From a virus, in IMG/VR virus record IMGVR_UViG_3300021256_000005: a stretch of 64,000 bases of DNA; one strand, written 5' to 3'. The position numbers were made by a program, and so were the translations under genes. Of this stretch, positions 4,552 through 49,754 are shown one piece after another. Below the pieces are notes generated by a model. That model was not told the origin of the DNA. It saw only the letters and a program-made list of their open reading frames with translations, and did not search any database. Position 1 is the first letter of the stretch. Each line of letters opens with the position of its first letter.

Positions 4552-5112
4552 TTAAACCTGTGCATTCTTGATACACTCAATACGAACCATATTCAGTGCA
4601 TTACCCTGCACAACAGAATGCACACGACCAATAAAGCCGTAAGTTGTACCTTCTGGTTTAGCGGAAGCGGCAACTTCAACGTAACCACCTTTTCCGTCAA
4701 CTACTACATAGTTGCCCTCTTTCGGCAGTTTATTTGCGCCAACAATAGTGGAAAACTGATAAGATGCAACAGCAAAAATTTCATTTTCCTCTTCAAGCAC
4801 CTGATAACATTTTACTGGTGCGCCAGCTACATTTGTAAAGTTATACGGCTGACTCTGTGCTTTAGTTACAGCGTCTTTTACATCTGGCGAAGAACCAGTT
4901 ACAGCAATCTTGTCACCTTTATCGGCAATAGTTCCTTTTCTAGTCTGTAATCCATCATAAGTCGGATCACCAACTTTTACAGCAACGCCGTTGTCTACAT
5001 CTTCATCGAAAACTAAATCAAAAATTTTTCCAACGTCTGTAGCTTTCAGCTTGCTAGATTCAAAAATACCATGCTTACCTTTTGCATCGGTTGTATATAC
5101 ATGCGTACTCAT
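4552..5112 (-). CDS. head decoration or scaffold-like protein candidate
   Basis: 186 aa, lying between the protease/scaffold candidate and the capsid candidate. Call is by position only. Confidence 0.4.
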   Translation of the reverse strand: MSTHVYTTDAKGKHGIFESSKLKATDVGKIFDLVFDEDVDNGVAVKVGDPTYDGLQTRKGTIADKGDKIAVTGSSPDVKDAVTKAQSQPYNFTNVAGAPVKCYQVLEEENEIFAVASYQFSTIVGANKLPKEGNYVVVDGKGGYVEVAASAKPEGTTYGFIGRVHSVVQGNALNMVRIECIKNAQV

Positions 5113-10067: not shown

Positions 10068-11105
10068 TTATTCCTCAAGGTCATGACCAAAGATATTGTC
10101 AAAAGCAATTTCTGTATCTGATTCACCTTCATATTCTGGTTTTTTCACGGTATACTTTTCTATAAACCGTCTGTACAAGTGAGAGAGTGGATTTTTAATT
10201 TTCAAATTCTCACACATGTGACCACGATAGAACACATCAATATACTGTCCAATACGATCTACATCCTTTAGTTCTGGGTCAATATCTGGACATGGACGTT
10301 CGGTTTCCCATTTTTGAATCAGAGTACCAAAGGTTTGCGCTTCTGAAAAAGCATCCAACACGTTTTGTTTTGGCGTTAAATTTCCAGAGTTCATTAACTC
10401 CTGTAAAGTTTTATATAAGTCTTTAGTCGGCAAATCATCTTGATTAGCCTTGCGGATTTTTAACTGTGTTTCAGCAATACTCTGTAACACAATTTCCATA
10501 GACTTAGTATTACACTCATAGCGGGTACTCCAATCTTTATACTGCTCATATAAAAACTTATAATCTTCTGTAGAGTATCCACGCCCGAAACGTGCTATGG
10601 TGTCTTTTAACTGCTCCTTCGTAAGTCCATACTCACTTAAATTCTGCGTTGTATCACTCGATTGCTCAAAACTCATAGTACGATAATTTGCATTTCTTTG
10701 TAATATACCTAAATACTGCTCATTAACATACATAACTTTTGTTGGGTCTGAATTGTTTTTAACCATCTCTTGCGCTGATTCATAAATAGAATCAATAAAC
10801 GGCAAATCTATTAGTTTTAATCCTTTTTTTAACGTATCAATATTTTCATACTTGATACCAGTTCCAGTATCGGTTGGGATTATAACTTGTTTGACGCATT
10901 GTTTACAAATAGGCAAAACATTTGATCCCCATTTCTCGCTTTTATAAAAATCAGATTTAGGTTTAAATTCAGCACAGCAATGACAATAAGCTCCATTTTT
11001 CATAGACTCATAAGCTTTACTCAAAGTCTTGTACATCTGTTTTACTTCATTTGGGGTTTTGCCTTTTAGAACGTCAACATCATCAAATGCAGTAATTTTT
11101 TTCAT
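10068..11105 (-). CDS. terminase small subunit candidate / zinc-ribbon DNA-binding protein
   Basis: 345 aa, directly upstream of terL. Cys cluster CHCCAEF..(x20)..CKQC. Confidence 0.35.
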   Translation of the reverse strand: MKKITAFDDVDVLKGKTPNEVKQMYKTLSKAYESMKNGAYCHCCAEFKPKSDFYKSEKWGSNVLPICKQCVKQVIIPTDTGTGIKYENIDTLKKGLKLIDLPFIDSIYESAQEMVKNNSDPTKVMYVNEQYLGILQRNANYRTMSFEQSSDTTQNLSEYGLTKEQLKDTIARFGRGYSTEDYKFLYEQYKDWSTRYECNTKSMEIVLQSIAETQLKIRKANQDDLPTKDLYKTLQELMNSGNLTPKQNVLDAFSEAQTFGTLIQKWETERPCPDIDPELKDVDRIGQYIDVFYRGHMCENLKIKNPLSHLYRRFIEKYTVKKPEYEGESDTEIAFDNIFGHDLEE

Positions 11106-11132
11106 CCTATTTCTCCTTTTGACATATTAAAA

Positions 11133-11673
11133 CAACTATTGAGTGATATTTCTATCTGCCAATATATATCTTCATACATATTCAGACACGTAGCATATAA
11201 CAGCCGAGCAGTCGGGAGCGACCCAACTGCTTTGTTATACCTATAAAACTACGGATAGACTGCTTACTATCACCTTTTACACACCTTTCGGCACAAATAT
11301 CGTTTTGTTTTAGAATGTACTTGTATAAAAAGCCTTGTGCTACTCAGACCAAACTCCAACGTTATACACGCATTTCTGCGCTTCACGGCTCTACAGATTA
11401 TTGATATTCCGCAGGTTTGATACAGTCATCGGCTAAACCCTAACTACGGTTATTGTACACAGTACCGTCTATTGCTCTGTCCGTCTCGTTTGTTCCTTTG
11501 TATGCGACACATATTGACACATATTCTTGATGTTGAGATTCTGTCTCTCCTTGCACAATATCACTATTATGCAACAGCAATAAACACAAGGTATACCTCA
11601 TGCGCTTACTGATCTTCCGAACATTCTCAGCACCGTTGGTTTCACGGCTCTGCACTGAGTTACTCAATAGCTG
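11133..11673 (-). ncRNA. candidate large structured RNA / structured leader of the packaging operon
   Basis: ~540-nt domain with no credible ORF, between a strong terminator and the TerS candidate. The ends pair over 12 bp (11662-11673 with 11133-11144). The single non-Watson-Crick position is G.U in minus sense but A.C in plus sense. Contains GNRA-capped hairpins (gcgcaGAAAtgcgt, gccGAAAggt in minus sense) and a duplicated TTCACGGCTCT (11382, 11641). Confidence 0.4.
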
Positions 11674-11684
11674 TTTTAATGTTT

Positions 11685-15228: not shown

Positions 15229-16038
15229 TCAGCTCTCAGAGGAACTTAAAAGAACTTTTTTACACGTTTGCGAACAAAATTGTTTGTTTTTGTATGCTTC
15301 AAATAAGTGATGGCACACAGGACACTCTTTCAAATTCTTCACTAGTTTATAATGCGCATAATATTGTTTTCCCAAGTTATTAAAGTTCTCAACCCAAAAT
15401 GCAACTGGTTTAGTTGTGTCAAGGTTCAAAATATTTACTTTGAACATATCAAGTTTGTCCACATGCAAGGTTTGTTTCGTCCCACGGTCAACAGTGCGAA
15501 TATCATAATTTAACATTCCTTTACCAATCAAATCATTTAAACACTTGAAATACTTGTCAGTGTTAAAGTTGGTTACATCCGCCAACTGTTTCAGATCAAC
15601 CGCTAAAATATGAAACCAATACCAATATTTCTCACTGGACAAATAATCGTCCACATGATACTTTTCCATGTGGCAGGTATCAATCCACTTTTTATGTACC
15701 AATAAAGCGAACAAGACTTTTTCATACTCCCAATTTTTCACTGACCGTATATTTTCCAGTTCGCATTCATAAACAGGCACTTTCACGTTATAGTCTTTAA
15801 TGCGAGTAGCAGAAGCAATGAAGCGGTTATAAATCTCAGTTTTATCCTTTACGTCTAAATAACATAATACACCATCACTTAATTCATCAAATTTATATCT
15901 GATTTCTCCCTTCGTGTAATTATTGTTCAACATATAAACAGCAACAGCGGTTAACTCTTGTCTGCTAAACTGTTTTGTTTTTAATTTACCAATCTTAAAA
16001 ATATATTCGCCGTATGTATAATAATTATGAATAATCAA
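15229..16038 (-). CDS. hypothetical protein with C-terminal zinc ribbon
   Basis: 269 aa. The C-terminus is CPVCHHLF..(x9)..CSQTCKK. 4-nt overlap with the RNAP gene. Confidence 0.6.
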   Translation of the reverse strand: MIIHNYYTYGEYIFKIGKLKTKQFSRQELTAVAVYMLNNNYTKGEIRYKFDELSDGVLCYLDVKDKTEIYNRFIASATRIKDYNVKVPVYECELENIRSVKNWEYEKVLFALLVHKKWIDTCHMEKYHVDDYLSSEKYWYWFHILAVDLKQLADVTNFNTDKYFKCLNDLIGKGMLNYDIRTVDRGTKQTLHVDKLDMFKVNILNLDTTKPVAFWVENFNNLGKQYYAHYKLVKNLKECPVCHHLFEAYKNKQFCSQTCKKVLLSSSES

Positions 16039-18815
16039 ATTTGCACCTCTGTATATTTCTTCCCTAAATACTCTGCACCGCTTTTATCTTCAATTACCGC
16101 AATATGCCTACCTTCCGGTAGTATGCTCAAAATATCTTCGCCCAACATATCCCAGATGAACGCTTCATCAAAACCGGATGTTTTATTGCCAAAATCAATC
16201 AGCACGTTAAATAAGTCGTATGTATTAGTTACAAGTTCGTCCAATTTGCCACGATATTCTAAATCGAACATACGTTTGGCATTACTGATAATACGGTGAA
16301 AATCGTCGTCATTGATATTGTCAAGCAAGTGTCTCACTAATGAGAGATATTTATTATTACAATAGTCACGGTAAATCTCGTAAACAGTGTCGTAATTATA
16401 TCTCACTGGTGGCATCCCGTATGACATCAAAACATTTTCTCCCTTGATTTTACGGAACGAAATATTATCCTCAACCCGCTCAAATTTGTGGCAAAGCTTA
16501 TTCATAATGCATGGCGAATCCAGAACAGGAGAGAAGTATTCAACACGATTCACGAATTTACGTTCTTCTTTTGTTTTGTTCGGCTTATATTTCAAGTCGT
16601 TGTATTTGATTTGAAATTTTGCCTTACAGATTTTCTGAAAACTTTTCATATGATTTGTATACGATTTATGCAAATTATCATACAGATAAATCATAAAGTA
16701 CGGCTTCTTTGTAATCACCAACGAATTACGTTTGTATTTTGCGTCTATCACCTCTGGACTATCATTTTCTAAATCAATTTTTACACGCTTAATCCATTCT
16801 TCTGGAAATTCAGGAGATACACCAAGTTTAATTTTATCAATCTCTGCACCAATGATCTCACGCAGTAATTTCAGACGTGTTAAAATGATTCTATGTTCTT
16901 CTGGTTTGGTATCAGCAGGAAACAAAGGCAACATAGCATTGAGAGATGTGCTATTGTTCGTGATTTGACCTACTAAAGTGTCGAATCCGTCCATATCGCA
17001 AGCAATCATGTTAGCGTATGTCGGCTTTCGTTTCGGTGCTTTGTCTTTGTCATATGTGATTACATTGTTTTTATAATACGCCCCCTCAATTAGTTGCTGA
17101 TTATCAGTTGTAAACGCAATATCACCGTCGAAATCCGAGTCACTATGGCGTATTGTGCTAGTATCATAAATACTATACACGATTCCAGAATACAAATACT
17201 GAAACCATTGTTCGCATTCATCGTCATCGTACACAGATAAGATATTATGTTCATGCCGATCCACCATAGGACTTCGCATCGCATCTATAGTATTTACACC
17301 ACGGTTCAGCCAAAACTGTGTATATACACAATTAGCAGGAATAAACCCCTGTATTGGCATATTAGAAGCTTGTTGCAGTAGCGGAATAGGATCAGCCAAC
17401 TGGAACTGATAATTTCCCTTCGCCCAAACACGACCAAGTTTTGCTTGCTTGAATGATTCCTTAATACTGTGATAAATCTTACGCTGTATGTATTCGTCTT
17501 TAAGCAAGTCTTGATTTTTCACAATTGCCTTTGTAAATAAACTACCGCAACTATTCATCATATCCTGCCAAGTTTCATCGGCGTGTTTACACCCAATAGC
17601 ATACAGATTAGCGTATAACGATTCACCGCTACAGATTTTTTGAAACCATTCAATTGTCGGCTGTATCAACTCGTCTATCGCTTTATCGGACAATCCGCAA
17701 TTCTGAATGTACTGGTAATTCAGTTGAGAATATTCTGCGTCATATTTTTTGTTGTATCTAGCAACACCCCAGTACAGTCCGTATTTGTCATGATAGTCAA
17801 CATACTCACGCACCGATGAATAGTAATCATGCATCTTAAACTGCGACTCTGTGAGTAAAACGTCTATTTCGTCCACATTAAACAATTCGCCGTAAATACT
17901 GCGGATTTCAGTTACCCCACACCGTTCCTTTAAGTATTTACGGAAATCAAACGTCAGCAGATTGCCCTTTACGAATGCCGTCCTAATTACGAACTGGCAA
18001 GCAGTATATCCAATCCCCATATCCTCAGACCAAAGTTCAGCCATTTCTGGCGTGATTAAACCTTCGCCATCACAGCTGTTCAAAACAACGTCCATAGTAG
18101 TAGGTTCGACTGTCTTTGTTCCATCCTCATGCTTCACGATATAGTCTATCTTCTGCTGTGGAATAGTAGTTTCAACGTCAGCAATTACGCAAATTCGAGG
18201 TTTTCTCACCCACAGAACGGAAGAAAACGACAGGGCAAAATACGCTGATAGTTTCGACAGTACAATTTCATCAATCGTACCGTAGAGTCCGCAGTACAAA
18301 TGTTCATTGAGTATATCGTAATATTCATCGTTGATAAACGTCACGGTATTACGTCTCATTTGTCCTGCACCACAACAGAACCGAACGTAATGTTTACCAT
18401 TGCAGTAGAAGCCGTGTTCCGCTATATGCTTATAGTGTGCCTTATTTACAACTTTGACATTGATAAAATCCGTCAGGTAAGTCATATCGAGTAGTTTGTC
18501 CTTCAACTGTTTAATAGACTTTTTGGTACGCTGATTTGTGTGCTTTGTACGTACTTTATCAATTTGTACCCGCACTTCTTGAATGTCGTTGTATAATTCA
18601 AGCGGTGTGCGTTTCTCCCCCTGTAAGTCTCTCAGCTTGCGTAATACTAAATTGTCACCAATGGAAACAATTTCTTTATTTTTAACCGCCTTCTGATAAC
18701 TGTACTGTCCCAGATCGAATCGTGGCTCAGTTGGTAGTTTCCCACCAACTAAACCTGTCCGATAAATCTTCGTTGTTTTAATTTTTAGTATGTCGTATAA
18801 AATTTGTTTTGGCAT
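16035..18815 (-). CDS. single-subunit two-barrel RNA polymerase, YonO / RdRP-like
   Basis: 926 aa. ..IDAMRSPMVDRHEHNILSV.. is followed by ..IRHSDSDFDGDIAFTTDN. The R-x-P block plus DxDGD metal-binding loop is the signature of double-psi beta-barrel RNAPs (beta-prime NADFDGD, eukaryotic-type RdRPs, SPbeta YonO). Confidence 0.65.
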   Translation of the reverse strand: MPKQILYDILKIKTTKIYRTGLVGGKLPTEPRFDLGQYSYQKAVKNKEIVSIGDNLVLRKLRDLQGEKRTPLELYNDIQEVRVQIDKVRTKHTNQRTKKSIKQLKDKLLDMTYLTDFINVKVVNKAHYKHIAEHGFYCNGKHYVRFCCGAGQMRRNTVTFINDEYYDILNEHLYCGLYGTIDEIVLSKLSAYFALSFSSVLWVRKPRICVIADVETTIPQQKIDYIVKHEDGTKTVEPTTMDVVLNSCDGEGLITPEMAELWSEDMGIGYTACQFVIRTAFVKGNLLTFDFRKYLKERCGVTEIRSIYGELFNVDEIDVLLTESQFKMHDYYSSVREYVDYHDKYGLYWGVARYNKKYDAEYSQLNYQYIQNCGLSDKAIDELIQPTIEWFQKICSGESLYANLYAIGCKHADETWQDMMNSCGSLFTKAIVKNQDLLKDEYIQRKIYHSIKESFKQAKLGRVWAKGNYQFQLADPIPLLQQASNMPIQGFIPANCVYTQFWLNRGVNTIDAMRSPMVDRHEHNILSVYDDDECEQWFQYLYSGIVYSIYDTSTIRHSDSDFDGDIAFTTDNQQLIEGAYYKNNVITYDKDKAPKRKPTYANMIACDMDGFDTLVGQITNNSTSLNAMLPLFPADTKPEEHRIILTRLKLLREIIGAEIDKIKLGVSPEFPEEWIKRVKIDLENDSPEVIDAKYKRNSLVITKKPYFMIYLYDNLHKSYTNHMKSFQKICKAKFQIKYNDLKYKPNKTKEERKFVNRVEYFSPVLDSPCIMNKLCHKFERVEDNISFRKIKGENVLMSYGMPPVRYNYDTVYEIYRDYCNNKYLSLVRHLLDNINDDDFHRIISNAKRMFDLEYRGKLDELVTNTYDLFNVLIDFGNKTSGFDEAFIWDMLGEDILSILPEGRHIAVIEDKSGAEYLGKKYTEVQI

Positions 18816-20564: not shown

Positions 20565-20602
20565 ACAGTCTCCTTTTATAAATTTATGTTTGGTTTAAGA
20601 AC

Positions 20603-20631
20603 AGTATAATCCGGAATGGGGTTAAAGTCAA
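20603..20631 (-). promoter_or_regulatory. sigma-A-like promoter for the leftward arm
   Basis: The minus strand reads TTGACT-N17-TATACT. It lies ~40 nt upstream of the AAAAGGAG SD and ATG of the helicase gene. Confidence 0.6.
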
Positions 20632-20655
20632 GAGAAAATAAAAATAAATTAAGTA

Positions 20656-20684
20656 TTGACAAAATTAAAAAGTTGTGTTATTTT
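20656..20684 (+). promoter_or_regulatory. possible rightward promoter firing into the non-coding region
   Basis: TTGACA-N17-TATTTT with an extended -10 TG (tgtTATTTT). The -10 is weak and the context is AT-rich, so false positives are likely. Confidence 0.35.
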
Positions 20685-20783
20685 ATTATAATATATATAT
20701 ATTAATTATATATTATATATATTTATATATTAATTATATATAAATTATATATTATTAATATAATATTATTACGTTTTATTCGG

Positions 20784-20868
20784 CAGTCGTGTCAACGACT
20801 GACGATAGCGTGACGTTGCATCGCAACGGAACGCGCCCCGCCGACAGGCGGCGTTGCCGACAGGCAAC
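20784..20868 (+). other. GC-rich multi-hairpin island 1 (four consecutive short hairpins)
   Basis: CAGTCG-tgtcaa-CGACTG (20784-20801); CGTTGC-atc-GCAACG (20814-20828); CCGCC-GACA-GGCGG (20838-20851); GTTGCC-GACA-GGCAAC (20853-20868). The last two share the core GCCGACAGGC. Confidence 0.8.
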
Positions 20869-20962
20869 TGTATAATAGTATTATATATATTTATATTATA
20901 TATAATATATATTATATTTATATATATATATATATTATATATTTATATTACATACACTTAGA

Positions 20963-21028
20963 CAGCTACGCCAGTAGCTGGCTAACGGTGCTGGTATTGC
21001 GTAGCAATGCCTGCGCCGAAGCGTCGCA
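20963..21028 (+). other. GC-rich multi-hairpin island 2
   Basis: CAGCTAC-gcca-GTAGCTG (20963-20980). GGTATTGC-gta-GCAATGCC (20993-21011), with one T.G pair that is a wobble only in plus-sense RNA. TGCG..CGCA bulged hairpin (21012-21028). Confidence 0.8.
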
Positions 21029-21048
21029 GACATATATATTATATATAT

Positions 21049-21092
<44 letters not shown>

Positions 21093-21154
21093 TATACAAT
21101 AAGATAATATATTTGTCAAGTATAAAATTATAATTATTTTAATAATATATTTAA

Positions 21155-21214
21155 TTAAATATATTTAAGTATTATATTATATACTATATATTTAGTTAAA
21201 TATATTTAAGTATT
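21155..21214 (+). repeat. two direct copies of the ~20-bp element TTAAATATATTTAA-GTATT
   Basis: Perfect 14-bp palindrome TTAAATATATTTAA followed by GTATT, at 21155-21173 and 21196-21214 (41-bp spacing). Confidence 0.85.
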
Positions 21215-21383
21215 ATTATAATATATAATTATTTATATATTATTATATATCACTGTATATTATTATATAATAATTAAGCACCATAGTTATTATATATTAT
21301 ATATTACTAATTACATACATCATCAATTACATACATTACTAATTACCAGAGTTATTATTTTATTATTGTTTATTGTTTATATA

Positions 21384-21453
21384 CTTTTGGCTCCTTTTGC
21401 TAACGCAAAAGATCACCAAAAGTTCGTATTCCTTCGCAAGCGAAGAAATACGA
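21384..21453 (+). other. GC-rich island 3: two nested (stem-in-stem) hairpins
   Basis: First hairpin: outer stem CTTTTGG/CCAAAAG with inner CTTTTGC-taac-GCAAAAG (21384-21422). Second hairpin: outer TCGTATT/AATACGA with inner CTTCG-caag-CGAAG (21424-21453). Confidence 0.8.
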
Positions 21454-22864
21454 GTGTAATATATATAAATAAATATATTATTATATTTATATTATTATAT
21501 ATTTATTATATATTATTATATTATATATTTATTATTATTTATATTATTATATATCTATTATTCTGCTGAGTTATATTATATTAAACAGTGTGGTTGCTAT
21601 ATATTATTATTTATTAAATATTTTATCTATTACTTTATCTATCGTTTGTATTATTCATTCACACTATTGAATTGTTATTATATACCCATACAACAACACA
21701 CAGTCATTTTGTGCGCTGTTTTATATATGCAGTTTAATAAGTTTACCCTAAATTATTAAAACGTCTGTATAAGCCTAATAGATATGTTATTTGAGGTGTG
21801 CCTTTTTTGGCGGGTTCTATTTTGTTGCGTGCTAGTTCCTGAGCTGTTTAGTTTATTATTTAATCGCTGTTATTTGCGCCGCCAAATTATATATACCAAA
21901 CGTCCTGTATTTTTAGCGTGTTTGTATTTGTTTGGTTGCCTATTTAGTTTAGTGTTCTGTAAGATGAGACAGTAAACTATTTGGATGTTATATTTAGTTA
22001 TATATTATATTATATATTTATATATTATTGACTGTCCAATTATTTTTCTGCGCCTTGTATCTTTGTCGGCTTTGTTTTATATTATTACTACAGTATTTTA
22101 TAGAACCGCTTGTCTGAAACATGCCTATATCTACACCTATTGATTGTACGCATGTTTTTATGACACCACCCTATAACTTTTACGTCTGAGAATAAAAACG
22201 TCTATATGAGCGTTTTAGAGCATTGTATAATACATTGATGATTGTCTATGTGTTTTGTTTAGTTAAATAAATTTAATTAAATTTCTTTAAGTATTTATTG
22301 GTGCGCCACTAGAAATATAGGCAGTATTTGACTGCTTTGTTTTGCGATGGTAAACTGTATTAAATAATTATTTGCGTGTTTTATTACCGCCTGCGAAATA
22401 GAATAATGTATATTTATTCATTGTTTATACATTTTGACTTGTTTGGTTGTTAATTTTTGCGGCTGTAATTTTTGGTTGTAGCCGTTAATGTTTGCGATGG
22501 TCTGTTTAATGTGTAAATATACCCCGCCTGTTTATTAAGTATGAGATCGCTGTTGGAGTACTTTTTTAATGTGTTTTGTATGTTATTTAGCTGAAAGATA
22601 GTTAAGCCATTAAGCAGTCAATTAGTTTAGATGATTGTTTTATGTTTGATTGAACAGAGCAATAGTGGTTGTTTCGTATTATTATATAGCACTTAAATGA
22701 TTGCTATTGTTTTGCTGATGGTTTATTCTGCGTTATTAGACAGCTAATTAGTTGAGCAGATATATGCTAATTTGTCCGCGCTGTAATTAGTTTATTTATT
22801 GGAGCAGTAAGTGATTTGCTAGTTCTATATTGCAGTTGTTTAGTCAGTGATGTTTGATGTTAAA

Positions 22865-22884
22865 TTAGTTAGGTTCCTAACTAA
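22865..22884. repeat. perfect inverted repeat TTAGTTAGG-tt-CCTAACTAA
   Basis: Two 9-bp arms separated by 2 nt. Lies just left of the iteron cluster. Confidence 0.8.
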
Positions 22885-22943
22885 CTAGGTGCTAAGCCAT
22901 TTTTGTGGCGACTGAGGGTGTTATTTTATATTAATTATATATA

Positions 22944-23265
22944 GTTACTAATTAGTTACTAGTATTTAGCGGTTGATAATATAGTGCAGGACAATTGCCT
23001 AATTTATATGGTTACTTATTGGTTACTAATTATGTTGTTGTTTTATGCAGTGAGTGGATTCTATTAGGCGATTGAGAAGTTGATTCTGGCAGTTAATTAT
23101 TATTGAATTAAGCCGCTGAATTACTTTATTTGATTGTTGTTTTGGAAGGTGTTATTTTGTGTTGATTCGAAATTATTAGGACGTGATGTAACTAATTGTA
23201 GTTACTAATTGGTTATTAGTTACTTATTAGGTATTAAGTATGTTGTTAGTTATTTATTAGTTACG
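22944..23265 (+). repeat. iteron-like cluster of GTTACT(A/T)ATT decamers
   Basis: Copies at 22944, 23011, 23022, 23188 (GTAACTAATT), 23201 and 23219, all on the same strand, plus degenerate copies (22955, 23244-23265). Confidence 0.75.
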
Positions 23266-24619
23266 TTGCGATTTATTTAGTTGCTTCTTAATTTATTTAT
23301 GTTTTGTAATATTACTTATTCTGCGACTGATTAAGTATTGGGAAATTCATTAATCTACTGATTTTGTTATGGTTTCTAAGATATCTTCTGACGTAAAATT
23401 GGTTTTGATTAATAGTTAAATATATTTAATTATTTAGTTGAGTAGTTTTACGATTGCTGTATTGATCTGATTGTAGTTGGTAAGAAGTAATATTATTGGC
23501 TGTTAGAACTATATGGTATTAGCAGAGTATATGATTGTTGTAGTTTAGTGGTTAATTTGTTGTGTTGTTTAATTATTAAACAGTGATTTATTTAGTAGCG
23601 AGCAACAATAAGTAATAAGTTTTTAGTTAGAGTGTTAATTAGTTGTAGTGCTGATTGAACACTGATGGTTTAGTAGTGATTTATTAGAGTGATGATTGAT
23701 TTATTTATGTTTTGGTAAATTTATTTGGTTTTTGTAAATAATTTTAGGTAGATATATTTAATTATTATTTATAATGACTGAGTTGGCAAGTTATGAATGT
23801 TACTTGAAGTATTCAATTCATTTTAATAAGCCTGAGATTTTCTTGTGTCGATTTAACTTATTGAGAGTAGTTTTATAGGACGCAATTCTGATGGAACAGT
23901 TTAACAATAAGGCTACTTGATCGTTTAATTAATTAGTTAGTTATTAGGTTTTTAGTTTTTTAGAGATTGATTTAGTGGATAGTTATTTATTAATGCGGGA
24001 TTTGGTGAGTAGAACTTTTATTTAGTGAATGTGGCAGTTTGATAAGTAGGTGATGGTATAGGTTGTTAGTTAGTAATGTTGATTGGTGGTAGTGTTTATA
24101 GATTAGTGGTTATTTAGTGAATTAGTTAGTGATTGTTGCTGATGTTGATTGGTTGATAGTGTATTAGTTATGATGTTTGTTTGATTGATAGGTGTGATGG
24201 CTGTTTGTGGGTGAGTGAGTTATTTGGTAATTTTATTTGATTTTTTTGTAATTAGTTTTTGTTAGTTTCTTTAATAGTGAGTTATTTATTTGGTGAGTTT
24301 GTTGGATTTTTGGAATGTTAGTGAGTTTTTAGTGAGTTGGGAAGTGAGAAGGGTGAGATTTTGACGGGGTGTGTGAGTTTACCTCCATATAGCTATTTTA
24401 GCTTTACACTTTTGTCAAAATGTATAAATAACCCCCTTTTGACGTCGGATAATAAAAATTACCCGACATGGCACTTTTTTGACATTTATGTCAAAAACTT
24501 AATAGTTAAATTTTTTTAACTAATTTTTTAATTATATATTATATATTATGCATAATATATTATATATCATATATTATATAAAATTATATTTGACACAATA
24601 TAAATTTCCAGAGCAACAA

Positions 24620-24715
24620 AATACTTAAAAATCTTTAACCATTCCCATCCCATCAAAAATACTTAAAATAATTTAACTATTATTTTTGCTCTAAAAATAC
24701 TTAAAAATTTTTAAC
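24620..24715 (-). repeat. three tandem copies (exact 38-bp period) of the ~20-bp element, opposite orientation to the 21.2-kb copies
   Basis: AATACTTAAAAATCTTTAAC (24620), AATACTTAAAATAATTTAAC (24658) and AATACTTAAAAATTTTTAAC (24696). Their reverse complements (GTTAAAgATtTTTAAGTATT) match most positions (about 19 of 23 by eye) of the 21196 copy. Confidence 0.8.
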
Positions 24716-24814
24716 TATCTCACCAGAACAAAAAATATATTTCATCAAATATAATTTGATACAACGTTATGCTGCACGTCACCAAACAAAAAATAAATTT
24801 TTTCCAAAAACCTA

Positions 24815-24843
24815 TTGACACAACGCGATACTAGTGCTATACT
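24815..24843 (+). promoter_or_regulatory. strong sigma-A-like promoter of the rightward arm
   Basis: TTGACA (24815-24820), a 17-nt spacer, then TATACT (24838-24843) with the extended -10 TGc immediately upstream. Predicted start near 24850. Confidence 0.7.
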
Positions 24844-24849
24844 ATAGTC

Positions 24850-25420
24850 AAGATAAAGATATAACTTATTTATCTTATCGTTCGGGCACTCTGCCCGCCC
24901 ACCGCTATCACAGCGGGCGTACCTTGACAAGTTACCTGTTGGTAACTCATAAGATAGGAGAACACCGTGACGGGTGAACTCTGCCTATCGTTAGTTTGAT
25001 AATTCTAACGCCTAAAAATTATCAGCCTATCTATAGGCGTAGTTTGCATACCCATGATAGGTTTACTATGAAATCGGCAACTGAAACCGTAGTTATGATA
25101 GAGTCGTTTAGACTCAAGTAGTCGGGTACAAGCCGAGTAGTAAATTGGGATTCATGGCAGACAAACTACAGCTATAGACAGGTGACTTACCCTTTGTATA
25201 TGTGAGGGTGTCGGGCTTTTCGGGTGTCCCATCAATACATCCAGGACGAAAATCATATACCGAACAAAATTGTCAACCGACGTGCCAGGGGTTGAATGTT
25301 TGCGGACTCAGTGCGCTTAAATAGCAGATAAATTTACACCGCAACATTGGCCGCCTGGTATGTCGTTACCTTGTAAGTTGCTTTAATTGCATGAGTTTAT
25401 CGTGCAATTAACGCAACTTA
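24850..25420 (+). ncRNA. candidate large structured RNA or ~600-nt structured 5' leader of the first early gene
   Basis: No credible ORF. Visibly more G+C-rich than its flanks. Many perfect helices: 24850-24876, 24884-24896, 24931-24946, 25101-25115; an H-type pseudoknot at 24989-25024; a long-range 8-bp helix GTAGTTTG (25039) with CAAACTAC (25162); and a 17-bp hairpin at 25374-25420 just before the SD. Confidence 0.45.
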
Positions 25421-25447
25421 TAAAGCGCAATAAAAAAGGAGAAAACT

Positions 25448-26023
25448 ATGTTAAAATTTAATCAGATTTCAAACGGCTTTATTGACAAGACAGCAAAGGA
25501 AAACAAGGCGGGCATTACCCGCATAATTAACTACGGCGTATCCCTCGTTGATCACGCCGAGAAACTTCTGTCTTTGCAGGAAGAAAAGAAGGAAGCAGAA
25601 AACAATCTGAATTCTGCTTCTGAAAAGTTAGACGGCACAATCTCCATTGACGAACGTGCCGCAACTCTGTTATCGTATCGGCTGAAAGTTAACGCAGTCA
25701 GTGAGAAGATTAAAGCAGAAAACAAAAGTTTTCGCTCGAAATCAAAGGTATTCACCGATGCCTTCAAGACGTCTGAATTATATCAGGCGTACAAAGAGTT
25801 TGACGGAACTGGAAACAGTTACCTTGATGCCATGTCAACGTTTCTTGATTTAGTCGGTATTGTACCGACTAAAAAAACTGTCAAAAAACTTTGCCGTCTT
25901 GCTGGTGGCTCAGTAACTACTGGCAATAAAGAAATAATAAATTGCCAATTCACAAAACGCCTGTCTAAAAAGGCGTTTGAAACTTTAATCATTAGATTGC
26001 TGTGTGAAGAGTTCGCACAATAA
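25448..26023 (+). CDS. hypothetical early protein
   Basis: 191 aa with SD AAAAAGGAG 7 nt upstream. Coiled-coil-like N-terminal half. Confidence 0.75.
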   Translation: MLKFNQISNGFIDKTAKENKAGITRIINYGVSLVDHAEKLLSLQEEKKEAENNLNSASEKLDGTISIDERAATLLSYRLKVNAVSEKIKAENKSFRSKSKVFTDAFKTSELYQAYKEFDGTGNSYLDAMSTFLDLVGIVPTKKTVKKLCRLAGGSVTTGNKEIINCQFTKRLSKKAFETLIIRLLCEEFAQ

Positions 26024-26039
26024 TTAGAAGGAGGAAATT

Positions 26040-26225
26040 ATGAGTTGGTTTGATGCAACAAAAAATTATCACGGGTATACAAAAGAAGAGTTCTATTCGG
26101 TATTCACCGATGAAGAACTCAATAGGAAATATGCCGAACTGGTTGAACATTATGATTCAATCAGGCAGGCTGACGCAGGGATACTATATGATATTCTCTG
26201 TGAACTATCAATAAAAATAAAATAG
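26040..26225 (+). CDS. hypothetical protein
   Basis: 61 aa with SD GAAGGAGG. Followed by a terminator. Confidence 0.65.
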   Translation: MSWFDATKNYHGYTKEEFYSVFTDEELNRKYAELVEHYDSIRQADAGILYDILCELSIKIK

Positions 26226-26248
26226 GGCGCAAGCCCTATTTCTTTTTT
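26222..26248 (+). terminator. rho-independent terminator
   Basis: ATAGGGC-gcaa-GCCCTAT stem-loop followed by TTTCTTTTTT. Confidence 0.8.
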
Positions 26249-26317
26249 ATTATTATATATACATGTGTCACGTTTAATGGGTTCCCATAAAAACGTGGCA
26301 GAACAGAAAGGGACACG

Positions 26318-26593
26318 ATGAAAAAGAAAATAATCATTTTAGCTGTAGCATTCGGCATGGCTTTAATCATTGGTGGTCACTCTGACTATGAAACCACTAG
26401 AGCAGAAAAAGATGTCTTTTCTACTTATTCCACCGTTGAAAATATCAACGGTCAAACATGCGTAAATGTCAAAGGTGATTACTTCGCTTTTGATGATGAT
26501 TCAATCAAAGAAAACAACTACGTGAGTGTTACAGTTGATACTCACGGTTCAGACAATAAGCATGACTGGACACTTGTCCGAGTGTGCAAGTAA
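26318..26593 (+). CDS. hypothetical secreted/membrane-anchored protein
   Basis: 91 aa. N-terminal MKKKIIILAVAFGMALIIGG is a signal peptide or TM segment. Confidence 0.65.
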   Translation: MKKKIIILAVAFGMALIIGGHSDYETTRAEKDVFSTYSTVENINGQTCVNVKGDYFAFDDDSIKENNYVSVTVDTHGSDNKHDWTLVRVCK

Positions 26594-28296: not shown

Positions 28297-30012
28297 ATGA
28301 GCTTAAAAAATGACGTAATCGAAGTATTAGATAATGAGAAATATATCTATTACAATGATGCAGTGTCAAGAATTATTAACGCTTATGAACCAAATAAACA
28401 TGAGGTAGTTGACATTTTACGCCGTCATCCTGACTGGAACGAGGATAATATGTCAATCTGTATCCCCGCAACATCGTATACACGAAAGTTCAATAGTAAT
28501 GCAATTTCCACGTTTGTAGATTACCTGATAGGCAGTATTTATTTCTCTGAGGAATTTCAGAATAATCTGGTAACATACTGTGCCGTGATGAATTATCAGT
28601 TACTCTCCAAATCTTTAGGAATAATATATTGTAGTGAAGTCATGCGTAAATGGTGGTTTGAAGAAAATGAACCATTGGTTAATGAGGATGGTGCCCTTCT
28701 ATACACACGGAATAAAGTTAGTACAGGAAAATATAATACTATTTTTCATGTATGCCCGAAAATAACGAAGGTGTTATCTTTCATTAGTTCGCTTAATACA
28801 GTTTTTTTCAATGCTGATATGGACGACGAATTAAATGAACTTAACGCCGATTTCCCGGCGTTCCATCTGCGAAACAACATGAAAACGTCAAAGGCAATCG
28901 GCAAAATTTGTAGAGAAATGGGTTGGGATAAATTTCCCAAATATAATGAAAAGTATGCGGCACTGTGTGACGAGATTAACCCATTAACAGTGCATACGCC
29001 TACATATATCAGTGTTCACCCTTGTGATTATTTATATATGTCAGATGGACATTCATGGACTAGCTGTCATGATATTCGAAACGCTGATGATCCGGGATGC
29101 TACAGTTCTGGCACTATCAGTTATATGTTAGATCATTATAGTTTCATCGTATACACACTGCCAGAAGTAGTAACCGAAAAACCGTGGAATCAGCCGAAAC
29201 TGCAAAGGGAAGTGTTTGCTCTGAAAGACGGTGTTATATTACAGAGCAGATTATATCCGCAGAGCTGTGATAACGGTTCAGGGGATGCTTATAGGGAAAT
29301 CCGCAACGTTGTACAGAAGGTAATTGCGGATTGTCTTGGGCAGCCTAATCTGTGGCAGACAAAACATTACCCGAATGTAGAACAGTACATCGTCCATGGT
29401 GACGGTGCTACCTGCTATCCAGATTGGAAAGACGGAAATCCTGGATCTACATATTGTTCCCTGACGTTCTTAAAGGGAATTGATCTCACCCATTTCTCAA
29501 TGGAAATCGGTGCAACACCTGTATGTCCAAACTGCGGAATGGAACATTGTCGTGAAGACAGTATTATCTGCGAAGATTGTGGAAACATTATCACCTGTGC
29601 AGATTGTGGCTGTGAGATGGACAGAGACTGCGCTTACATGATTGATGATGAATATTATTGTGAAGGTTGTGTCTTTTGGTGTGAATACCACGAGGATTAC
29701 GAACTAATTTCTAATGGTGTAACAGAAGTTGACGGATACGGTCAGGTTTGTGATCGAGCGTTAGAATATGGAGATTTTTACCAATGTGAATATTGCGGGG
29801 AATGGAAGTACGTAGAGGATATAATCCGCACAGAAGATGGTTGTTATTACTGTTGTGAAGAATGTGCAATTAGAGATGGTTATAGGGAAACCACCGATGG
29901 ATGGTATCTTGAACGTAAAACAGTAAAATGTCCACATTGCGGACGTTACAATTTAGAAGAAGACGATCAGTGCTATTGGTGCGGTAAATTTGTTGCGGGG
30001 GTGGCATCATGA
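28297..30012 (+). CDS. hypothetical protein with C-terminal multi-zinc-ribbon region
   Basis: 571 aa. The last ~170 aa carry at least 8 CxxC pairs (CPNCG, CEDCG, CADCGC, CEGC, CEYCG, CCEEC, CPHCG, CYWCG). The central block HPCDYLYMSDGHSWTSCHD is not assignable. Confidence 0.75.
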   Translation: MSLKNDVIEVLDNEKYIYYNDAVSRIINAYEPNKHEVVDILRRHPDWNEDNMSICIPATSYTRKFNSNAISTFVDYLIGSIYFSEEFQNNLVTYCAVMNYQLLSKSLGIIYCSEVMRKWWFEENEPLVNEDGALLYTRNKVSTGKYNTIFHVCPKITKVLSFISSLNTVFFNADMDDELNELNADFPAFHLRNNMKTSKAIGKICREMGWDKFPKYNEKYAALCDEINPLTVHTPTYISVHPCDYLYMSDGHSWTSCHDIRNADDPGCYSSGTISYMLDHYSFIVYTLPEVVTEKPWNQPKLQREVFALKDGVILQSRLYPQSCDNGSGDAYREIRNVVQKVIADCLGQPNLWQTKHYPNVEQYIVHGDGATCYPDWKDGNPGSTYCSLTFLKGIDLTHFSMEIGATPVCPNCGMEHCREDSIICEDCGNIITCADCGCEMDRDCAYMIDDEYYCEGCVFWCEYHEDYELISNGVTEVDGYGQVCDRALEYGDFYQCEYCGEWKYVEDIIRTEDGCYYCCEECAIRDGYRETTDGWYLERKTVKCPHCGRYNLEEDDQCYWCGKFVAGVAS

Positions 30013-47452: not shown

Positions 47453-48328
47453 ATGACGCAATTTACTATGCTAATTGGATTGCCCGCCAGTGGGAAAACA
47501 ACGTTGGCAAAAAGTCTAAAAACAGAATTAAACGCTGTCATATTGAGTTCTGATGAAATCAGAGCAGAATTATACGGAGATGCTGAAAATCAAGAGCATA
47601 ATCCAGAAGTATTTAATCATATGAATAAACTGACACGAGAGTATTTACAAAAAGGTACTTCTGTAATTTATGACGCAACAAATATCAATTATAAAAAGCG
47701 TATGAATTTATTAAAACAGTTACCAGAGTGTCAAAAGGAATGTATTTTGGTAATGACTCAATATGAACAGTGTTTAATTAACAATCTCAGTCGAGAACGC
47801 AGAGTTCCGACTGAAGTTATAAAACGTATGTATCGTTCCTTTGTAGTACCGTATTATTATGAGGGGTGGGACGATATAAAAATACATTATTCGTTTGAAT
47901 ATAATGATGCAACATATTATCAATGGTTAAAAGACGCAGATAATTTTAATCAGGAAAATTATCATCACACATTGTTGCTCGGAGATCATATGCGCAAAAC
48001 AGCAGAACATGTGTTGAGTACAACTGGAAAGAAAGATGAATTGTATTATGCCGCTTGTATCCACGATATTGGAAAAATGAAAACGCAAACAAAAACAAAG
48101 GTTGACAAACAGGCGCATTATTTTGGACACCAGAACGTTGGAGCGTATGATAGTTTTTTCTTTACCAGAGAAAACTGTGATTTACTAAAACGAGCAATTT
48201 TGATCCAGTGGCACATGTTGTTGTACACGGTAAAGATTGACACAAACGTAAAATGGCAAAATTTATTAGGAGACAGTTTGATAAATCAATTACAGATTTT
48301 ATTTGAAGGAGACAAGCTTGCTAAATGA
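47453..48328 (+). CDS. polynucleotide kinase-like P-loop domain fused to HD phosphohydrolase domain (RNA end-healing candidate)
   Basis: N-terminal MLIGLPASGKTTLAK and SSDEIR (PNK/AAA_33-like). C-terminal HHTLLLGDHM and ACIHDIGK (HD motif). Confidence 0.65.
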   Translation: MTQFTMLIGLPASGKTTLAKSLKTELNAVILSSDEIRAELYGDAENQEHNPEVFNHMNKLTREYLQKGTSVIYDATNINYKKRMNLLKQLPECQKECILVMTQYEQCLINNLSRERRVPTEVIKRMYRSFVVPYYYEGWDDIKIHYSFEYNDATYYQWLKDADNFNQENYHHTLLLGDHMRKTAEHVLSTTGKKDELYYAACIHDIGKMKTQTKTKVDKQAHYFGHQNVGAYDSFFFTRENCDLLKRAILIQWHMLLYTVKIDTNVKWQNLLGDSLINQLQILFEGDKLAK

Positions 48329-49485: not shown

Positions 49486-49504
49486 AGTAATTATAAATTT
49501 ACAG

Positions 49505-49533
49505 TTGACAGAGTAACTAGAAAGTGGTAAGAT
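49505..49533 (+). promoter_or_regulatory. sigma-A-like promoter upstream of tRNA and replication module, with repeated TTACAGTTGA boxes
   Basis: TTGACA-N17-TAAGAT with the extended -10 TGg. TTACAGTTGA occurs at 49499 and 49536, with an inverted half CTGTCAAC at 49561. Confidence 0.5.
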
Positions 49534-49594
49534 AATTACAGTTGATGAAGTTCTTTGGAACTGTCAACAAAATATAGTTTCCTTTCCTTCTTAG

Positions 49595-49620
49595 AATTGG
49601 TGGATGTTCTTCCACCAATT
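49595..49620 (+). other. 10-bp perfect hairpin abutting the 5' end of the tRNA
   Basis: AATTGGTGGA-tgttct-TCCACCAATT ends 1 nt before tRNA position 1. There is no real T-tail, so it is not a convincing terminator. Confidence 0.7.
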
Positions 49621-49621
49621 T

Positions 49622-49693
49622 ACCCCCATCGCCAAATGGTTAAGGCATAGCACTTTGACTGCTACACTACTGGTTCGAGTCCAGTTGGGGGTG
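49622..49693 (+). tRNA. tRNA-Gln (anticodon UUG)
   Basis: Hand-folded. 7-bp acceptor stem ACCCCCA/TGGGGGT. 3-bp D-arm GCC/GGC with GG in the loop. Anticodon stem TAGCA/TGCTA with loop CT-TTG-AC. 4-nt variable loop. T-arm ACTGG-TTCGAGT-CCAGT. Discriminator G, no encoded CCA. 72 nt. Confidence 0.85.
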
Positions 49694-49754
49694 TTTAAAA
49701 CAATAAAAAATATAAAGAAAGGAGTCCATATGAATAAAATTGCAAGAATTAGAA

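Follow-up and report, generated by a model that had tools for sequence, protein, structure and literature searches.

To our knowledge, only a few bacterial or phage RNAs longer than 500 nt with a selected fold have been described, namely OLE, GOLLD, ROOL, and HEARO, and their functions are largely unsolved. Smaller RNA elements are found in the immediate-early units of phages, where lambda nut (with N) and HK022 put are leader-embedded antitermination RNAs, and the RNase III processing hairpins and 5' stabilizers of the T7 and SP82 early mRNAs are single hairpins. We know of no cis-regulatory leader or antitermination RNA near 590 nt in size, the known ones being far smaller. Cryo-EM structures indicate that ROOL, GOLLD, and OLE build homo-oligomeric RNA-only complexes (PMC12286853), and a catalogue of candidate structured RNAs of phages and viruses holds motifs of 29-151 nt, each with at least three IMG/VR matches (PMC10690425).

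Here we examine a stretch of 64,000 nt from an IMG/VR virus record (IMGVR_UViG_3300021256_000005), referred to as the window, whose carrier is a ~77-kb gut phage with, probably, a Clostridia host. An initial annotation of the window, made from the sequence by eye, had pointed to a strong promoter followed by a long structured region in front of an early gene, and had proposed a large non-coding RNA or a regulatory leader.

Organization of the immediate-early unit

The unit spans ~1.4 kb and consists of a promoter, the leader, orf191, orf61, and a terminator, with the leader making up ~43% of its length. Its features, together with the repeats upstream, are as follows.

24617..24718, no strand assigned: 26-nt direct repeat (AAAATACTTAAAAATnTTTAACTAT) in three copies, spaced exactly 38 nt apart
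24815..24843, plus strand: sigma-70/sigma-A-type promoter, TTGACA-N17-TATACT, 11/12 consensus matches and an extended -10
24850..25435, plus strand: structured non-coding RNA of ~590 nt, predicted 5' leader of the immediate-early transcript (z = -7.5, substitution tests)
25436..25450, plus strand: SD (AAGGAG) and start of orf191, with the ATG at 25448
25448..26225, plus strand: orf191 and orf61; the unit has no other genes (ORF list, codon-position substitutions)
26220..26250, plus strand: intrinsic terminator, seemingly bidirectional, with a 9-bp stem, GCAA loop, and U-tract (z = -6.2)

The promoter proposed in the initial annotation was confirmed as near-consensus, with the -35 hexamer TTGACA at 24815-20, a 17-nt spacer, the TG of the extended -10 at 24835-36, and the -10 hexamer TATACT at 24838-43. 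L002, the homologous locus on which most of the comparisons below depend, keeps both hexamers and the TG despite four changes in the spacer. Transcription of the leader is predicted from the sequence to start near 24850, and no further plus-strand promoter-like site occurs between this promoter and the ATG at 25448. The AAAATACTTAAAAATnTTTAACTAT repeats, ~100 nt 5' of the -35, are also conserved in L002, where there is one more copy, and probably serve as binding sites for a regulator. The leader borders a 4.9-kb non-coding control region that separates the two genome arms and in which ORFs are lacking, repeats and AT-rich palindromes occur, and strand skew is extreme.

The leader has no coding potential. 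Its longest ORF is 47 aa and none of its stop-free stretches holds its position in L002, which upholds the earlier remark that no credible ORF is present. The indels relative to L002 measure 5, 14, 1, 1, 1, 1, and 5 nt, and the substitutions fall 24/18/27 by position modulo 3; on these grounds, and given the lack of a position-stable stop-free stretch, small-ORF coding was rejected. The G+C content of the region is 0.42-0.455, against 0.15-0.31 upstream and 0.35-0.45 in the downstream coding sequence, so the earlier description of the region as richer in G+C than its surroundings clearly applies to the upstream side but only slightly to the downstream one.

Downstream, orf191 is truly coding (25/21/82 substitutions by codon position) yet unusually fold-rich. 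Its SD is largely free of pairing in the window and pairs in part in L002, with no conserved sequestering helix, and an anti-SD motif of the CTCC type is absent from the window's leader. No plus-strand terminator was called within 24848-25447, and no promoter-like site (at least 9/12 matches) lies between the 26220-26250 terminator and the next gene at 26318. The two small ORFs with their strong terminator, and the fold-richness of the entire unit, had been overlooked in the initial annotation.

Fold of the leader and its conservation

The leader has an MFE z-score of -7.5 (coding background, -1.1 ± 1.5), which is comparable to or stronger than that of the ROOL RNA carried by the same genome (-6.2). 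It contains 38 perfect helices of at least 6 bp, compared with 19.5 ± 4.3 in shuffled sequences, and six of at least 8 bp, compared with 1.27 ± 1.06. Folding and comparison with L002 divide it into the following parts.

24850..24916, plus strand: three 5'-proximal hairpins, namely the 5'-terminal hairpin, GGGC/GCCC at 24884-96, and CCGCU/AGCGG at 24902-16 (folding, consensus)
24931..24946, plus strand: dispensable hairpin GTTACC-tgtt-GGTAAC, removed as a unit in L002 (14-nt gap)
24953..24989, plus strand: bipartite stem-loop made up of consensus helices 4 and 5; two of its pairs are compensatory (GC to AU, GC to CG)
24989..25024, plus strand: candidate H-type pseudoknot, found in 17/1000 shuffles, with helices 6 and 7 fully paired in both sequences
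25039..25169, plus strand: domain A, ~130 nt, with a long-range closing helix, nested helices, and a GAGUC/GACUC hairpin (consensus)
25170..25274, plus strand: middle domain of 3-4 shorter helices (helices 17-21), with three compensatory pairs
25278..25365, plus strand: long irregular G.U-rich hairpin of 26 bp (helix 22), folding energy -38 on the plus strand vs. -29 on the minus strand
25371..25423, plus strand: near-perfect 22-bp hairpin just 5' of the SD (helix 24), with one compensatory pair

All of the helices listed in the initial annotation are present in the window, and their fate in L002 is mixed: the hairpin at 24931-46 is absent and the 8-bp long-range helix is shortened to ~5-6 bp. 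The 5'-proximal stems are either invariant in L002 or shortened yet kept. The pseudoknot that had been noticed by eye is real in the sense that its interleaved 6-bp and 8-bp helices are present and rarely arise by shuffling; S1 (24989-94 with 25005-10) is invariant in L002, and S2 (24997-25004 with 25017-24) has two changes, both to G.U. Domain A is the most conserved part of the leader, at 95% identity. The hairpin at 25371..25423 was rejected as a terminator, since a U-tract is missing and no plus-strand terminator was called, and it could be an RNase III-type substrate. The 17-nt imperfect direct repeat (TACCTTG...) that had also been reported did not survive scrutiny: its 11/13 matches are at the level of shuffles and the 5' copy is not retained in L002.

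The leader is 87.8% identical between the window and L002, whereas the adjacent ORF is 77.8% identical and only ~57% identical at third codon positions; leader divergence (12%) is thus far below synonymous-site divergence (~43%). It should be noted that the AT-rich DNA upstream is conserved as much as the leader (90.5% identity), so a mosaic history could inflate the contrast between leader and ORF. Constraint on the fold is seen in a pair-preservation test, in which the structure was predicted from the window alone and the L002 substitutions were compared with 1000 simulations. Only 13 of the predicted pairs are broken (26.3 ± 3.2 expected), seven pairs show double compensatory changes (1.5 ± 1.2 expected), and the threaded energy of the L002 leader is -158.7 (-115.2 ± 11.2 in simulations); none of the 1000 simulations equaled this preservation (P < 0.001). 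The two-sequence consensus comprises 24 helices and 156 pairs, every one of which forms in both sequences, and includes seven two-sided changes, compared with 0-1 in slid controls. The indels also respect helix units, with the hairpin at 24931-46 lost whole. This covariation is a single pairwise comparison, L002 being the sole diverged and informative homologue. Taken together, the two sequences indicate that the fold of the leader is itself kept by selection.

Excess structure is not confined to the leader. The orf191 and orf61/terminator regions have MFE z-scores of -6.3 to -6.6, and 240-nt windows have low z-scores throughout 24320 to 26480; a high MFE z-score alone is therefore not specific, and the structure signal is partly regional. 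When the pair-preservation test was applied to orf191 as a control, the result was not significant, with the L002 orf191 keeping a low MFE but not the specific pairs, so only the leader shows the preserved-pair signal. Overall, the immediate-early unit is fold-rich along its full length and a specific architecture is kept only in the leader.

The assignment to the plus strand rests on energy asymmetry rather than on wobble substitutions, which in shared helices number 4 vs. 3. The minus strand of the leader also folds well (z = -8.2). However, the alifold consensus energy favors the plus strand (-153.5 vs. -142.1), as do the per-domain energies in both homologues (for domain A, -39 vs. -32 to -34), and the L002 substitutions break 13 pairs on the plus strand compared with 19 on the minus strand. 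Many leader helices additionally depend on G.U pairs, which are stable only in plus-strand RNA.

Distribution and possible roles

The element has a narrow distribution. Using blastn (word size 11), the leader had no match in 50,697 GenBank phage records, and its exact conserved 20-24-mers had none in IMG/VR, JGI metagenomes, or GTDB genomes. The orf191 protein is found in only three clusters among 5.8 billion, one of which gives L002 and another L003, with only 48 nt of leader. Single-protein IMG/VR scans with orf191 and with the helicase returned nothing, and contigs of an 80% relative of the 571-aa protein end short of the leader. Approximately 115-120 loci of more distant relatives were obtained through the 571-aa and 113-aa proteins, and nhmmer, blastn, and a covariance model of domain A detected the element only in the window, L001, and L002, always upstream of the same ORF; the leader homologue is carried by 0 of 65 related IMG/VR loci. 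Candidate counterparts in relatives were considered and dropped. The positional analogue in L114, in which the order of G/T-rich, AT-repeat, and leader segments is alike, cannot be aligned, is absent from Rfam, and lacks clear structure (z = -1.2 to -1.6); it has a T-arm-like motif, but no tRNA is present there. Other relatives have structured non-coding intervals, which are grouped in sequence families of their own. The interval of a 9-member group has no plus-strand ORF directly after it and resembles the AT-rich zone with GC islands, and it was therefore set aside as an analogue.

Our preferred explanation, to which we give slightly less than even confidence, is that the leader is a real, previously undescribed, lineage-restricted structured RNA that forms the 5' leader of the immediate-early unit and most likely acts in cis. 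Upon DNA entry, host sigma-A RNA polymerase would fire at the extended -10 promoter, and the first 590 nt would fold into the 5' hairpins, the probable pseudoknot, the 130-nt domain, the middle domain, and the two long 3' hairpins. Transcription would then pass without an attenuator through orf191 and orf61 and end at the 26220-26250 terminator. With neither an internal terminator nor a conserved SD-sequestering helix, the leader is not a classical riboswitch or attenuator. It most likely acts on its own transcript or on the polymerase transcribing it: it may shield or stabilize the immediate-early mRNA, its long hairpins may be a processing site, perhaps for RNase III, or it may set read-through of the terminator before the delayed-early genes, in the manner of antitermination. 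Nothing in the leader sequence specifies one of these mechanisms.

A leader acting in cis has a modest edge in likelihood over a free ROOL-like RNA. The latter would be a trans-acting, stand-alone ornate RNA of ~590 nt, the very first product of infection and working as RNA itself, in a new class that is analogous but unrelated to ROOL and GOLLD, either freed from the mRNA by processing at the 3' hairpins or functioning while attached. We consider this unlikely, although several features speak for it. Its size, multi-domain long-range closure, and GC-rich island exceed those of any known cis-regulator, the leader occupies ~43% of its unit in a genome that also carries a bona fide ROOL, and attenuator or SD-sequestering logic is absent. 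The near-perfect hairpins of 26 and 22 bp would be plausible dsRNA processing sites, and the element is lineage-specific with fast turnover, as arms-race functions would lead one to expect. Such an RNA could possibly be a decoy or scaffold for host or defense factors or take part in RNA-only assembly; if so, it might serve as a decoy for, or a shield from, host RNases or RNA-guided defense, or as a self-assembling RNA particle, and one phage would encode two different giant RNAs, one of them inside a hyper-structured immediate-early transcript. What weighs against it is that a terminator or other defined 3' end is missing between the leader and the SD, that the element is seen upstream of the same ORF only, and that it has no similarity to any Rfam family.

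The regional fold-richness raises the question of whether the leader has any specific RNA function. Inverted repeats may abound from ~24320 to 26480 because of composition or for a generic purpose such as mRNA shielding, with leader conservation reflecting recent shared ancestry or mosaicism rather than selection on the fold, as the z-scores of orf191 and orf61/terminator, the run of low 240-nt windows, the low MFE of the L002 orf191 without specific pairs, and the 90.5% identity of the upstream DNA would allow. This is improbable given that leader pairs are preserved (P < 0.001) with seven compensatory changes where the orf191 test is not significant, that indels follow helix units, and that divergence is 12% against ~43% at synonymous sites. 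Still more improbable is an element that works as DNA. It might be an origin, load a primosome, signal packaging or ejection, or supply hairpin promoters to the phage's YonO-like polymerase. The position at the edge of the repeat-rich, palindromic, strand-skewed ORF-free zone would suit it, Watson-Crick compensation is strand-symmetric, and the minus strand has a z-score of -8.2; however, many helices rely on G.U pairs, both homologues are more stable as the plus strand, a conserved strong promoter is directed into the region, and long-range nested helices with a pseudoknot are typical of RNA, not duplex DNA. The minus-strand z-score could likewise indicate an antisense RNA, running from a weak promoter-like site (e.g., 26211-26183, 10/12 matches) to a terminator-like hairpin at 25038-25025, and the wobble substitutions in shared pairs are split 4 vs. 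3. Promoter-like sites of 10/12 are no commoner than chance, though, domain and consensus energies favor the plus strand, and broken pairs number 13 on the plus strand vs. 19 on the minus strand, which leaves an antisense RNA the least probable of the readings, and very improbable in itself.

Comparison with known structured RNAs

The search used all 4227 covariance models of Rfam 15 and included a relaxed search (E ≤ 10) over 24400-25700. At this threshold, the leader had no match other than chance-level hits (E 1.4-7.7), located in its 3' hairpin and around the SD, to eukaryotic miRNA, snoRNA, and UTR models, with miRNA precursors in the majority. The same window contains a genuine ROOL (RF03087) at 11126-11683 on the minus strand, scoring 300.3 bits against a gathering score of 99.1. 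As the search finds this copy and returns no RF03087 match in 24400-25700 at E ≤ 10, the leader is ruled out as a ROOL member, and it is ruled out as GOLLD, OLE, HEARO, or raiA by the lack of a covariance-model match. The suggestion in the initial annotation that it might belong to ROOL or GOLLD is accordingly discarded; its core inference of a large structured non-coding RNA or leader, as opposed to coding or random sequence, is supported by conservation above that of the adjacent ORF, structure-preserving substitutions, and plus-strand bias. No T-box, riboswitch, or intron signature had been recognized by eye, and the Rfam search likewise finds none. A riboswitch, T-box, or attenuator was rejected because the leader has no Rfam aptamer or T-box match, no plus-strand terminator within 24848-25447, and no conserved SD pairing, and a group I or group II intron because there is no Rfam match and the region lies between genes without splitting an ORF. 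A tRNA-like element or tmRNA is ruled out by ARAGORN, whose sole detection is a tRNA-Gln at 49621-49694. Guide or template RNAs (retron/DGR, IscB/TnpB omega RNA, IS110 bridge RNA) were rejected since Pfam and PHROG scans, run on proteins of the flanks and of the early arm, place no reverse transcriptase, IscB/TnpB, or IS110 recombinase gene next to the leader.

A second giant structured RNA, unrelated to ROOL, in a ROOL-carrying phage would be a new test case for the role of such RNAs, and one with defined timing, as the first product of the host polymerase, and defined context, with a strong early promoter on one side and a terminator-bounded gene pair on the other. In practical terms, it is limited to two sequences. 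That an entire immediate-early mRNA can be fold-rich also has implications for how the first transcripts of phages are protected or processed.

Descriptively, the leader is a large ornate ncRNA, being longer than ~400 nt, non-coding, and folded into multiple domains. It shares with ROOL its size class (~560-590 nt), phage carriage, a GC-richer island, many helices, and a comparable z-score (-6.2 for ROOL vs. -7.5). However, the ROOL of this phage is a separate late-arm gene, whereas the leader belongs to the early arm, where it is joined to a promoter on one side and to an SD/ORF on the other. ROOL also has a curated Rfam family; the leader is known from two metagenomic contigs. GOLLD, OLE, HEARO, and raiA are also large, ornate, non-coding bacterial or phage RNAs, from which the leader differs in matching no model and in having no IscB/TnpB-type or OLE-partner gene nearby. 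The catalogue of phage and virus motifs (PMC10690425) is comparable as a systematic search for phage intergenic RNA structures, and is unlikely to contain the leader since an exact IMG/VR match is lacking for two conserved 21-24-nt blocks of the leader and none of the 65 related IMG/VR loci carries a homologue of it.

In its possible mode of action, and in that respect only, the leader can be likened to lambda nut and HK022 put. Like them, it would be the 5' leader of a host-polymerase-driven immediate-early transcript, and a terminator (26220-26250) divides that transcript from the next co-directional gene block. The leader thus occupies the position upstream of a terminator expected of an antitermination leader of the put/nut/EAR type, with no Rfam match of that type within it, and is ~10 times larger. 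The early mRNAs of T7 and SP82 offer a further parallel, as the leader has a 5'-terminal hairpin and near-perfect hairpins of 22 and 26 bp before the SD; here, however, the long hairpins are just the 3' third of a conserved multi-domain fold.

Genomic setting and transcription unit

The window represents most of a ~77-kb phage-like metagenome contig (ENA ERZ12302812 NODE_590), in which a 4.9-kb zone free of ORFs (20565-25447) separates two divergent arms. Late functions map to the left arm on the minus strand, namely portal, large terminase, exonuclease, UvrD helicase and a single-chain RNA polymerase of 926 aa resembling YonO/RdRP. Early and replication genes occupy the right arm on the plus strand: small unknown ORFs, a Cys-rich 571-aa protein, an M28-like peptidase, GmrSD_N, an anti-restriction protein, two integrase-like recombinases, a kinase/HD protein with a T4-type RNA ligase and tRNA-Gln, and Sak4, DnaB, exonuclease and DNA polymerase. 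The candidate RNA, termed the leader here, forms the last 600 nt of the ORF-free zone, immediately before the first right-arm gene.

Features discussed in the text
11126-11683, minus: ROOL RNA (RF03087), full-length model match, 300 bits (gathering score 99)
16035-18815, minus: YonO-like single-chain RNA polymerase, 926 aa, Pfam RdRP PF05183
24850-25435, plus (likely): leader
25448-26023, plus: orf191, first gene 3' of the leader
26040-26225, plus: orf61, second gene 3' of the leader
26220-26250: intrinsic terminator, 9-bp stem, GCAA loop, U-tract, z = -6.2

At its inner end, the late arm has the polymerase gene beside that of the UvrD helicase. The polymerase shares 25-31% identity with SPbeta YonO and with homologues from Clostridium and Enterocloster phages; its nearest named relatives belong to Bacillus SPbeta-like, Clostridium and Enterocloster phages. 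MAG matches of the 571-aa protein are labeled Clostridia, Acutalibacteraceae and CPR lineages, and the putative host is likely to be gut Clostridia. This protein (28297-30012) has many invariant Cys and no Pfam domain, and about 300 relatives come from 50-220-kb gut phages; it proved the most useful marker of the group. At 47453-49694, an AAA_33 kinase/HD-domain protein, a T4 Rnl1-type RNA ligase and tRNA-Gln(UUG) form a tRNA-repair-like cassette, which suggests counter-defence against anticodon nucleases.

The ORF-free zone begins with TA-rich simple repeats and palindromes (about 20690-21560) enclosing GC-rich islands (20770-20870, 20950-21030 and 21385-21455), followed by a G/T-rich, C-poor stretch (~22300-24360, GC skew up to +0.9) with 82% identity in L002, a Logan contig bearing a leader homologue. 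The order G/T-rich stretch, AT repeats, leader recurs by position in a relative (L114, 1-1153). The zone might serve as an origin, genome ends or a control region. Just upstream of the early promoter (24617-24718), a 26-nt direct repeat (AAAATACTTAAAAATnTTTAACTAT) occurs three times with an exact 38-nt spacing, with an additional copy in L002; these are likely sites for an early-promoter regulator, or iterons.

The early promoter proposed in the initial annotation (TTGACA-N17-TATACT, extended -10 TG) stands, matching at 11/12 positions; in the 5.8 kb scanned it ranks in the top three (at least 11/12) and first on the plus strand. From there to the ATG at 25448 the plus strand has no further promoter-like site of at least 9/12, and none of at least 9/12 precedes the next gene at 26318. 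Given the terminator at 26220-26250, the promoter should therefore drive a ~1.4-kb unit, 43% of which is leader. The terminator is strong, appears bidirectional, overlaps the orf61 stop codon and parts this two-gene immediate-early unit from the next co-directional early genes, for which no obvious promoter is seen. Classical attenuation or SD sequestration is not supported, because the window's leader contains no anti-SD motif, SD accessibility differs between the window and L002, and the terminal 22-bp hairpin lacks a U-tract.

Structure and conservation of the leader

As the initial annotation held, the leader stretch has no credible ORF (the longest is 47 aa) and every helix listed exists. 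The stretch has 38 perfect helices of 6 bp or more, where dinucleotide shuffles have 19.5 +/- 4.3, and 6 of 8 bp or more, where shuffles have 1.27 +/- 1.06; the interleaved 6-bp and 8-bp helices of the proposed H-type pseudoknot are likewise present and have a counterpart in only 17/1000 shuffles. The MFE is -206.7 kcal/mol (z = -7.5). The reported G+C enrichment (0.42-0.455) is clear against upstream sequence (0.15-0.31) and slight against downstream sequence (0.35-0.45). The direct repeat reported near both ends is no better than chance, its 5' copy not being kept in L002.

The element is rare. A blastn search of GenBank phages gave no match, and exact searches with conserved 20-24-mers found nothing in IMG/VR, JGI metagenomes or GTDB genomes. 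Among 5.8 billion proteins, orf191 has only three clusters; one, with 84% identity, is on L002, which bears 2.2 kb of upstream sequence, and another covers just 48 nt of leader. We gathered ~115 loci of more distant relatives via the 571-aa and a 113-aa early protein, and across these nhmmer, blastn and a central-domain covariance model placed the element only in the window's contig and L002. The homologue search thus yielded one diverged homologue and no others in the databases searched.

The L002 alignment spans 23152 to 26036, with 87.8% identity in the leader and 77.8% in orf191. As orf191 substitutions fall 25/21/82 by codon position (~57% third-position identity), the non-coding leader is far better kept than synonymous sites. 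Leader substitutions (24/18/27) have no 3-nt periodicity, indels are of 5, 14, 1, 1, 1, 1 and 5 nt, and no stop-free stretch is at a kept position. The 14-nt deletion in L002 takes out precisely the hairpin GTTACC-tgtt-GGTAAC.

For a preservation test, the window-only MFE fold was fixed and L002 substitutions were randomly re-placed on same-base positions in 1000 simulations. The real substitutions broke 13 pairs (26.3 +/- 3.2 expected), left 7 two-sided compensatory pairs (1.5 +/- 1.2) and gave a threaded energy of -158.7 (-115.2 +/- 11.2); 0/1000 simulations matched this preservation. RNAalifold on both sequences gave 154 consensus pairs, and in a curated consensus including the pseudoknot stem 156/156 pairs are standard in both, with 7 two-sided changes, a number that drops to 0-1 once partners are shifted by 1-3 columns. 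The simulation test is the less biased, since the curated consensus derives from the same two sequences it is applied to. The covariation signal, 7 compensatory pairs plus structure-preserving substitutions, comes from a single pair of sequences.

Known RNA families and related phages

Rfam 15 was scanned over the whole window at gathering thresholds, returning ROOL plus a tRNA and zero matches in the leader region, and permissively (up to E = 10) over 24400-25700, where only chance-level eukaryotic miRNA, snoRNA and UTR models appeared (E 1.4-7.7), on the terminal hairpin and SD region. ARAGORN found no tRNA-like element or tmRNA at the leader. The leader is therefore not a ROOL, GOLLD, OLE, HEARO, raiA, riboswitch, T-box or intron RNA. 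The earlier suggestion of ROOL/GOLLD membership fails for the leader, while ROOL itself does occur in this genome, in the late arm between the ORF at 10068-11105 and the exonuclease gene (fold z = -6.2). A published phage csRNA catalogue covers motifs of 29-151 nt and requires at least 3 IMG/VR matches (PMC10690425); as two conserved leader blocks have no exact IMG/VR match and 0/65 related IMG/VR loci hold a homologue, the leader is unlikely to be included.

In related phages (L027, L031, L059, L068, L045, L047 and L053), the stretch upstream of this early arm holds ORF-free intervals of 0.5-1.6 kb that are lineage-specific, and several of them have strongly negative folding z (-5 to -8.6). 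By sequence the intervals fall into families with 20, 9, 7 and 5 members, all absent from Rfam, and they may represent additional unannotated structured RNAs or DNA elements; their sequences are numerous enough for covariation analysis. L006, a related IMG/VR phage of 137 kb, has a type-P5 twister ribozyme (4718-4789; RF02684, 40.6 bits) and a tRNA in its early region. Reverse-transcriptase genes (RVT_1) occur in L111 (6992-8263), a relative with the 571-aa protein, and L118 (14296-15504), a mobile-element contig with a 113-aa protein homologue; the window has none of this kind.

Candidate roles of the leader

The Watson-Crick signal is strand-symmetric (minus strand z = -8.2), and wobble-substitution counts in helices common to both strands are 4 vs 3. 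The plus strand compares with the minus at -153.5 vs -142.1 in consensus energy, 0.81 vs 0.79 in SCI and 15 vs 10 in consistent one-sided changes, and per-domain folding energies are -174 vs -160 in the window and -160 vs -134 in L002, the gap being greatest in the central domain (25039-25169) and the two 3' hairpins. These energies, the conserved promoter, operon co-orientation and the lack of a plus-strand terminator make plus the likely RNA strand; an antisense RNA is highly improbable, and an element acting as DNA only slightly less so. Generic fold-richness with no specific function draws on the surroundings: by sliding 240-nt windows the fold-rich zone is ~24320-26480 (600-nt z -6.3 to -6.6; 240-nt z -3 to -7.6), the adjoining orf191 region has z = -6.6, and relative to 30 coding windows on the sense strand (mean -1.1, sd 1.5) the sole outliers are the leader, ROOL (-6.2 to -7.1) and windows just downstream of the leader. 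L002 orf191 also has its own unusually low MFE (-163 vs -131 +/- 7), but under a null matched by codon position specific orf191 pairs are not significantly kept (46 broken vs 50.1 +/- 3.8, P = 0.18). The entire immediate-early unit is thus fold-rich, with conserved architecture only in the leader. The generic explanation is unlikely.

The leader is probably a real structured RNA under selection. We tentatively favor a role in cis, on its own transcript or the polymerase, given its physical linkage and an immediate-early layout like that of lambda; it could stabilize or shield the transcript, serve for processing within the long hairpins, or govern how often the 26220 terminator is read through. 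A new ornate RNA working in trans, rather unlikely in itself, is nearly as good a reading, favored by the element's size and complexity and by the ROOL precedent in the same genome. Known from just two sequences, which limits confidence, the leader is best placed among the large structured phage RNAs or leaders.
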